A program made the position numbers and the translations under genes. Shown piece after piece: positions 17,258-18,656 of a DNA stretch of 32,000 bases. Every line of letters starts with the position of its first letter. Within the stretch, counting starts at the first letter, position 1. This DNA is from Nitrospirota bacterium (GTDB lineage Bacteria; Nitrospirota; UBA9217), in the NCBI GenBank assembly GCA_963737155.1, contig CAVTRN010000002.1, positions 756,960-788,959 of the forward strand, read 5' to 3'. Below the pieces are notes generated by a model. The model searched no databases. It saw nothing but the letters and a program-made list of their open reading frames with translations, and was not told the origin of the DNA.

Positions 17258-18132
17258 TGGTGCTCGATCGCAAAAAATACGCGGTTATCGTTGCCGATGA
17301 TTTCGGTAGTTCCTCTTCGGTGAATCTAGCCGTTGCCGAAGCATATGACAGGGGAATACTCTCTGCAGCAAGCCTAATGGCAGGAGGGGCTGCTTTCGAG
17401 GAGGCCGTAGAGATAGCCGGGAAGCGAAGGGGCCTCTCCGTCGGACTCCATGTGACCCTCTGCGACGGAAGGGCGGTACTGCCCTGTTCCGAAGTCCCCG
17501 GCCTCGTTGATTCGCGCGGCAGTTTCGAAATAAGCGCTTCAAGTGCCTGGATGAAATACCGCCATGTCAGTCTTTTGGGCCAGCTAGACCGTGAGATCGA
17601 AGCGCAGTTTAACCGGCTGGAAAAGGCAGGTGTCCGTCCAACGCACATAGACGGCCACCACCACCTCCACATGCATCCCGCAATATTCGAAAAGCTTTGC
17701 GGGCACGCATCACGGCGGGGGATTCGATGGGTCCGGATACCTCGTGAGCCCCTGTCCCTCCTCCTCCGTTTTCCCTTATCGGGGCGCGGCGCCATGCCTT
17801 TCATCGAATGGGCGGTTTTTGCGGTCCTCGGGAGAATGCATGTAAAGAAGGCGCGCGAGTACGGACTGCGCTCGCTCGAAGTAGTATACGGGTTGGCGCG
17901 GACCGGGCAGTGCGACGAGCGTTACTTGAAGCACATTTTTGGCCGGGCCGGCGGCTCTCTGGAAATTTTCATGCACCCCGACACCGCGACAGCGGCAGGG
18001 CGGCGAGAATTAGAAGCGCTGACCTCCGCCGCGACGCGCGCCGCACTTGGTGCATGCGGCGCTGTCCTTGCGGGATACCGAGAACTTTCCGCGGAAGCGG
18101 CGGTTCCGGACGGCGCGATGGAGATTGTATGA
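17257..18132 (+). CDS. hpnK: Hopanoid-associated YdjC-family deacetylase HpnK
   Basis: 291 aa with motifs VIVADDFGSSSSVNLAVAEAYDRGILSAASLMAGG and HIDGHHHLHMHP. Its ATG overlaps the hpnJ stop (TAATG). Confidence 0.85.
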   Translation: MVLDRKKYAVIVADDFGSSSSVNLAVAEAYDRGILSAASLMAGGAAFEEAVEIAGKRRGLSVGLHVTLCDGRAVLPCSEVPGLVDSRGSFEISASSAWMKYRHVSLLGQLDREIEAQFNRLEKAGVRPTHIDGHHHLHMHPAIFEKLCGHASRRGIRWVRIPREPLSLLLRFPLSGRGAMPFIEWAVFAVLGRMHVKKAREYGLRSLEVVYGLARTGQCDERYLKHIFGRAGGSLEIFMHPDTATAAGRRELEALTSAATRAALGACGAVLAGYRELSAEAAVPDGAMEIV

Positions 18133-18656
18133 AAACGTATATAGTCGTTACGATAGCCGCATTTTCCGCGGCAATTGGCGAAACCCTCCTGAGCTTCGGG
18201 ATGAAGAGATTCGGATCGATGGACCTTGCGGATCCGTCCCAATGGCTTGTACTCGTTTTTTCCGTGGTCCGAAATCACTACGTATTTCTGGGCGTTGTAT
18301 TTCTGAGCATTTTCTTTTTTCTTTATCTCGCCGCTCTCTCATGGGCGGACCTCAGTTTCGTCCTCCCGCTGACTGCGGTATCGTACCTTTTCGCTGCGCT
18401 GCTGGCAAAGTTTTTCCTCAAGGAAGAGGTCTCATGGTATCGCTGGACCGGCACGATAGTCATTGTGATCGGCATCGCCATAGTAGCGTTCGGCGGAAAA
18501 TCAAGGTCAGTTGTCCGTATACCGGACCTCCTTACGACGGTTTCATCGGGGATCACGGGAGGGCAGACGGAAGCAGACCGTCAATCCCGTCGTTTTTTCA
18601 CGCAAGGACCGTCCAACCTCGATAGGATTGCCGTGCGGGAAGAGGGGAAGCAATGA
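18129..18656 (+). CDS. Small DMT/EamA-like (half-size, about 4 TM) membrane protein with a hydrophilic C-terminal tail
   Basis: 175 aa starting MKTYIVVTIAAFSAAIGETLLSFGMK. Hydrophobic segments include LSFVLPLTAVSYLFAALLAKFFL and WTGTIVIVIGIAIVAF. ATGA overlaps join it to hpnK upstream and to shc downstream. The track ORF 17808..18656 is an out-of-gene N-terminal extension that overlaps hpnK. Confidence 0.7.
   Translation: MKTYIVVTIAAFSAAIGETLLSFGMKRFGSMDLADPSQWLVLVFSVVRNHYVFLGVVFLSIFFFLYLAALSWADLSFVLPLTAVSYLFAALLAKFFLKEEVSWYRWTGTIVIVIGIAIVAFGGKSRSVVRIPDLLTTVSSGITGGQTEADRQSRRFFTQGPSNLDRIAVREEGKQ

Follow-up and report, generated by a model that had tools for sequence, protein, structure and literature searches.

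A small DMT/SMR-like membrane protein encoded among the hopanoid side-chain genes of a Nitrospirota bacterium: a candidate hopanoid-glycoside flippase

Hopanoids are sterol-like lipids of bacteria. The side chains of amino-sugar hopanoids are built by HpnI, HpnK and HpnJ, which in turn make BHT-GlcNAc, BHT-GlcN and the BHT cyclitol ether, and hopanoids are delivered to the outer membrane by HpnN (PMC12583986). The enzymes are known, and no protein moving amino-sugar hopanoids across the inner membrane was found in the literature searched. HpnL has been left functionally unassigned in published work (PMC12583986; bioRxiv 2025.07.29.667474), two surveys of 2025-26 giving it no known function; it has been proposed as a ligase (bioRxiv 2025.07.29.667474), and of 48 alphaproteobacterial genomes with hpnH, 13 lack it (PMC12583986). 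The undecaprenyl-phosphate-L-Ara4N flippase ArnE/ArnF (PmrM/PmrL) is described as a glycolipid flippase and a lipid-transporting SMR subtype, and lipid SMRs keep the tyrosine switch (PMC9574504). In MprF, residues 32-341 span flippase subdomain 1, which is essential for lipid flipping (PMC8131360). An EamA gene is listed without comment in the Leptospirillum cluster (PMC12654047), and no paper assigning a function to the family to which the protein considered here belongs was found in the literature searched.

The window analysed is a stretch of 32,000 nucleotides from a Nitrospirota bacterium and contains an hpn operon in the order hpnI-omp85-hpnJ-hpnK-DMT-shc-hpnA, then hpnH and a CruF-like gene. 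"DMT" denotes the candidate flippase gene, which codes for a small DMT/SMR-like membrane protein of 175 aa (18129..18656, + strand). All on the same strand, hpnI (12764..13915; TIGR03472, 316 bits against a cut-off of 310) codes for the GT21 glycosyltransferase converting BHT to BHT-GlcNAc, hpnJ (15833..17257; TIGR03471, 696 against 578 bits) for the B12/radical SAM enzyme of cyclitol ether formation, hpnK (17257..18132, its stop overlapping the DMT start) for a YdjC-family deacetylase, shc (18653..20680; TIGR01507, 790 bits) for the squalene-hopene cyclase, hpnA (20677..21666; TIGR03466, 454 bits) for the hopanoid-associated epimerase and hpnH (22203..23204; TIGR03470, 403 bits) for the adenosylhopane synthase. 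HpnI, HpnJ, SHC, HpnA and HpnH all exceed their own NCBIfam cut-offs, while the HpnK model scores slightly below its own (207.7 against 232.6 bits), with the Pfam YdjC model above cut-off. A longer DMT reading frame of 282 aa, starting at 17808 and overlapping hpnK, was rejected, as the homologs start at 18129; the nearest of these carry Nitrospirota names.

Several other genes surround this core. A probable hpnG (PNP_UDP_1 phosphorylase; 11138..11920, - strand) is divergent and is also found in other hpn loci; between it and hpnI, an ORF at 11969-12496 matches the transketolase C-terminal domain only and is possibly a dxs fragment. Upstream of the cluster, 6797-11017 codes for a 1406-aa CoA-substrate-specific enzyme activase with two BcrAD_BadFG domains and a DUF2229. 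The CruF-like (PF04240) membrane protein gene (23219..24076, + strand), which has no hpn name, accompanies hpn clusters of the DMT type and recurs beside hpnH/hpnA or DMT across Nitrospirota and in G693. A second HpnI-like GT21 gene (about 250 bits) lies elsewhere in the host genome (L158:5489-6727; G000:C2 about 2662500), and such a paralog is also present in many Nitrospirota that have neither shc nor an hpn-type DMT. Within the operon, an Omp85-family outer-membrane protein gene (13980..15212, + strand) has counterparts in Leptospirillum-type clusters (L157, L160), and its product could serve the delivery of hopanoids to the outer membrane; no HpnN was found in the host genome or in G019. 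A role for DMT in hopanoid trafficking would be shared with the RND hopanoid transporter HpnN, acting with HpnM/HpnS/HpnT; unlike that large RND protein, DMT is small and tied to the side-chain genes rather than to shc. DMT as a replacement of HpnN was discarded: HpnN was not found in the host, yet the two coexist in G069.

The description of DMT as a small EamA-like protein of about four transmembrane segments, given in the initial annotation, holds. PF00892 (EamA) matches aa 6-120 with 38.1 bits, against a gathering score of 28.2, and an AF2 model covering aa 1-125 (pLDDT 94.7) consists of helices throughout, crossing the membrane about four times. The 175 aa hold one EamA domain, and the two-repeat, single-chain layout of about 10 TM is not present in this protein; duplicated forms occur in cyanobacterial relatives. 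The best fold match of the model is Gdx-Clo (Z 11.7, rmsd 3.4, 102 residues aligned), a Z under 13 being suggestive only for a helical bundle, and the top ten Foldseek rows are all SMRs (EmrE, Gdx), none with E < 0.001. The best structural matches are thus EmrE and Gdx-Clo, from which DMT differs in having no PF00893 (SMR) match, which within the genome is found only for the arn-type gene, and in lacking Glu14, the Tyr switch, the Trp and the GXG fulcrum where these would align. Specifically, in an ArnE/F-type alignment of TM1, with EmrE numbering (E14) taken by us as the reference, DMT has Ala at position 14 and Glu one turn on, at 18; E14 is present in 14 relatives, and an acid at 14 or 18 is kept by most members of the family. 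In TM3, neither the tyrosine switch nor the GXG fulcrum was found; L79 replaces the tyrosine of the ArnE/F-type AYP motif, and no Tyr is among the common residues of the homologs at the switch position.

The comparison with ArnE/ArnF is closer in organization than in sequence. The two families share a homologous 4-TM unit (DMT profile against ArnE: hhalign 96.6%, E 6e-10) and a gene arrangement, with single or paired genes whose operon also encodes a glycosyltransferase and an enzyme removing an N-acyl group from a sugar (ArnC/ArnD, paralleled by HpnI/HpnK); DMT itself also resembles ArnE/ArnF in having no central Glu at position 14. Unlike ArnE/ArnF, to which it is 20-28% identical, DMT has no Q18/K22 and no AYP tyrosine motif, its loop 1 is longer with an extra helix, and its family occurs in an hpn context, with fusions to the GT21 enzyme. 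When the protein is classified by profile models, as had been proposed, EamA is matched above its cut-off; conversely, PF00893 does not match, and the ArnE and ArnF NCBIfam models fall far short (22.6 against a cut-off of 99 bits and 16.9 against 92 bits). In the tree, a branch with 97/97 support unites 55 hpn-type rows and leaves out the four arn rows, the outgroups being few and long-branched, and DMT is located in the hpn operon and not in an arn (L-Ara4N) operon. The host has, moreover, a separate locus with arnT-like, single small SMR ArnE-F-like and arnB-like genes (L002:176-3201; G000:C2 about 2735300-2738400), whose arn-type gene is 28% identical to DMT. Membership of DMT in ArnE/F is therefore not supported by cut-offs, motifs or tree; by analogy, DMT may act like ArnE/F, as a candidate function, yet it is no member of that family. 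On the best explanation, DMT represents, in its single-gene form, a so far unnamed SMR/half-DMT subfamily that is dedicated to the side-chain module hpnI-hpnK-hpnJ.

This dedication is seen in the distribution of the family. At least 80 GTDB loci were found by one motif, in Acidobacteriota, Nitrospirota, Syntrophobacteraceae, Armatimonadota and others, in a sample biased to Acidobacteriota; the unpublished genome G329 is excluded from all counts, and the genomes are related by descent, so that counts overstate independence. Among the 80 loci listed, hpnI, J or K lies within 6 kb in 75 (52 of 54 for loci of at least 10 kb) and shc in five; two exceptions belong to genomes with shc and HpnI elsewhere. 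Among 301 genomes of the phylum Nitrospirota, the best 28 other DMT loci are all flanked by hpn genes. In the host family, shc and DMT occur in the same ten genomes, one DMT copy being broken (G087, which also has no strong HpnI match, suggesting joint decay). Family f9 has shc in 49 of 50 genomes, with HpnI and a strong DMT match in the same three, and family f17 has shc in 25 of 25 with neither HpnI nor DMT in any of them; shc-positive Nitrospirota have DMT almost only where HpnI is present. In a second phylum, a DMT pair is present in 26 of 27 HpnJ genomes, mostly directly after hpnJ, and in a third, DMT is found in none of 60 HpnJ-negative genomes; unlinked matches of 90-100 bits in that phylum are of the ArnE/F type (AYP motif) and were not counted. 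Exceptions are G015, with a DMT gene but no HpnI match, three incomplete genomes of family f3, with HpnI and no DMT, and two plasmid copies outside an hpn context; many DMT pairs of Terriglobia adjoin hpnJ alone. The family tracks the side-chain genes hpnI/J/K, not shc. A lack of association with hpn genes elsewhere had been named as what would refute the flippase idea; the association proves strong, is seen across several phyla and concerns hpnI/J/K specifically.

The junctions on the two sides of DMT have different histories. The initial annotation had described the gene as locked between its neighbors by ATGA overlaps, and both overlaps exist (hpnK stop/DMT start, 18129-18132; DMT stop/shc start, 18653-18656); the one on the hpnK side (ATGA/GTGA) is a conserved junction among relatives, whereas the one on the shc side is the product of a recent frameshift. 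Three related genomes (G147, G123, G155) have four extra bases near position 18510 relative to the host genome, and in G147 and G123 DMT stops at 150 aa, about 75 nt upstream of shc. In the host genome, G151 and G139, three genomes of one genus, 4 nt are missing after about 18510, the frame is shifted past the ancestral stop (near 18575), and reading ends on the shc ATG. By bypassing the ancestral stop, the 4-nt deletion gave rise to the long tail and to the overlap with shc, both of which are recent. Across 120 homologs, aa 1-123 (18129..18497, + strand) are highly conserved, with G17, an acidic or amide residue at 18, M25, G55, SWADLS at 71-76, P80, E99, R105-W106 and G108, and the hydrophilic tail of about 53 aa (18498..18656, + strand) is unconserved in the homolog alignment. 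A functional role for this tail, which had been singled out as a notable feature, was rejected on these two grounds, and a meaning of the coupling to shc, as a product of the same recent frameshift, is likewise not supported. Broken copies of DMT before shc are present at G087:C5:97904-98210 and G155:C313:1499-1791.

The family occurs as a single gene (Nitrospirota), an adjacent pair, a split pair (Leptospirillum-type), an internal duplication with a linker, and an N-terminal fusion to HpnI. The internally duplicated proteins (about 280 aa, 4+1+4 helices; L161:6001-6843, L038:4936-5793, L166) have halves clearly similar in sequence, unlike SMRs, for which an SMR review reports no detected internal duplications. 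A search for DMT-HpnI fusions gave 223 matches, and all 120 among the matches listed carry the GT21 domain; at least 120 fusion clusters at 90% identity belong to Blastocatellia, in addition to one separate lineage, and the fusion lies on two separate tree branches. The fused DMT lies next to a free copy. An apparent fusion to an aminotransferase in L149 was discarded, its second part lying in a different frame. Among these forms the K+R bias lies near -8 for second copies and for fusions, near 0 for first copies and near -1.5 for single genes, and it differs in the same direction in 87 of 88 pairs; as in EmrE/Gdx-Clo, single genes are near-balanced and pairs asymmetric, although first copies are neutral and not opposite to second copies. 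Judged from sequence, this bias fits an antiparallel dimer, which in the single form would have dual topology.

A second protein, HpnL, appears where DMT is missing. HpnL-like presence was scored at matches of at least 100 bits, and such a match is present in 14 of 14 DMT-less hpnJ/hpnI genomes tested, against three of 67 DMT-bearing genomes; the background is three of 60 HpnJ-negative genomes, and the three incomplete f3 genomes are outside this tally. Of the 21 third-phylum genomes with HpnJ, 12 have no hpn-type DMT, and each of these gives an HpnL-like match (114-334 bits, only one above the cut-off of 195.65); of the nine with DMT, seven have no HpnL match above 40 bits and two have both (Fisher p = 3e-4 for this table, overstated by kinship). 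Both proteins are present in three genomes (G213, G712, G742), with weaker HpnL-like genes in two more DMT genomes (G321, G314). PF03706/TIGR03476 (HpnL) does not match the DMT protein and was not found in the host genome, and no HpnL was found in the 138 DMT loci searched. DMT and HpnL are nearly mutually exclusive. In three Burkholderiales records HpnL directly follows hpnK or hpnI, and DMT was not found on the four plasmid/chromid records standing in for Pseudomonadota, which include these; in G361, the sole DMT-less HpnJ genome of the second phylum, and in Nitrospirota G297, hpnK is followed by a PF03706 gene. Between hpnK and hpnL of G297 lies a CDP-alcohol phosphatidyltransferase gene (L145:13784-14935), and four genomes of the third phylum with no adjacent hpnI (loci L186, L187, L189, L191) have a gene of 357-376 aa between hpnJ and hpnK.

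HpnL sequence searches against the PDB found nothing, and only the fold search gave a match. The AF2 model of the HpnL-like protein of G297 (L145:14939-15910; pLDDT 85) aligns with residues 32-341 of MprF (Z 20.2, rmsd 4.0; the next match, an unrelated one, has Z 6.8) and has no soluble synthase domain; the modeled fold speaks for a translocase and against the ligase that has been proposed. DMT resembles this protein in using the same operon slot after hpnK/hpnI, in a fold also known from lipid translocases, and in its tie to the hpnI-J-K module, and differs in that sequence and fold are unrelated (the 8-TM MprF subdomain against the 4-TM SMR unit). Because of this match and of the near-exclusive distribution, two unrelated lipid-flippase folds would fill one slot.

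On balance, we favor DMT as a candidate flippase/scramblase for amino-sugar bacteriohopanepolyols, and hold this reading to be somewhat better than an even bet. The HpnI fusions and the exchange with the MprF-flippase-like HpnL independently support a role in lipid translocation. The co-substrates of HpnI, HpnK and HpnJ are cytoplasmic, so that their products should arise in the inner leaflet. Two copies of DMT would form an antiparallel dimer, putatively a dual-topology homodimer in the host and a heterodimer or an internal repeat elsewhere; the dimer may hold the amine head at the acidic pair of TM1 (E18), with the hopane ring remaining within the bilayer by way of an SMR-type portal, and would transfer the lipid to the periplasmic leaflet, with facilitated flipping or scrambling as the probable mode. 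In lineages without DMT, the same step would be performed by HpnL as a stand-alone MprF flippase subdomain. The lost tyrosine switch, the carriage of soluble solutes by other SMR/DMT folds, the ligase proposal for HpnL and its absence from some alphaproteobacterial genomes with hpnH, the genomes with both proteins, the f3 genomes, the plasmid copies and G015 count against this reading, and the exact substrate is left less certain by the Terriglobia pairs beside hpnJ alone.

The repeated fusion to HpnI, the conserved translational coupling to hpnK and the position beside hpnJ alone in Terriglobia would also suit a membrane accessory subunit that extracts BHT or its glycosides and presents them to HpnI, HpnK or HpnJ at the inner leaflet, with no net translocation. 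We consider this rather unlikely: a one-sided scaffold needs neither a transporter fold nor an antiparallel charge logic, its partner enzyme is not constant (HpnI, HpnJ or HpnK), and the replacement protein HpnL has a translocase fold as well. SMR/DMT folds also carry soluble solutes, and DMT resembles NIPA2, SLC35B1 and LicB weakly in sequence; an EamA/SMR-type transporter of a small soluble molecule of the pathway, exporting acetate or the by-products 5'-deoxyadenosine or methionine, or taking up an amino sugar or amine, for which the membrane-embedded acid at 14 or 18 would suit a cationic solute, is nevertheless unlikely. To our knowledge, radical SAM and deacetylase pathways elsewhere do without a dedicated partner of this kind, and a lipid is the cargo suggested both by the glycosyltransferase fusion and by the exchange with a lipid flippase domain of the MprF type.

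That lipid might be another product of the GT21/YdjC/radical SAM module, such as an amino-sugar ceramide-like lipid or glycerolipid, given that HpnI is a ceramide-glucosyltransferase-like GT21, that many non-shc Nitrospirota have an HpnI paralog and that shc is rarely adjacent to DMT outside Nitrospirota. However, the non-shc genomes with the paralog lack hpn-type DMT, shc is present in 20 of 21 HpnJ genomes of the third phylum, and the unlinked DMT copies lie in genomes with shc and hpnI, making this very unlikely. Lastly, the two plasmid copies with no hpn neighbors could hint at a passenger of the common EamA/ArnE-F-like kind that has nothing to do with hopanoids; linkage, fusion, co-loss, a dedicated clade and the presence of the host's own arn-type gene elsewhere render this highly improbable, and the co-occurrence data have already largely refuted it.

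Beyond the single gene, the preferred flippase reading extends to a broader proposal, to which we give even odds: bacteria with amino-sugar hopanoids would need a dedicated inner-membrane flippase, and the slot would have been filled twice, by the DMT family and by HpnL. Its taxonomic form, which may equally well hold or fail, would place Nitrospirota, Acidobacteriota, Cyanobacteriota and part of the Desulfobacterota-type lineages on the DMT side, and Pseudomonadota and others on the HpnL side. The DMT/HpnL exchange, the MprF fold match of HpnL and the origin of the DMT tail are new in this analysis. DMT and HpnL are a directly testable candidate pair for the movement of amino-sugar hopanoids across the inner membrane, the DMT family fills a gap in the annotation of hpn genes, and it is possibly a new lipid-transporting subtype within the SMR superfamily. 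If true, the reading of one slot filled twice would name the missing transport step and at once assign HpnL.
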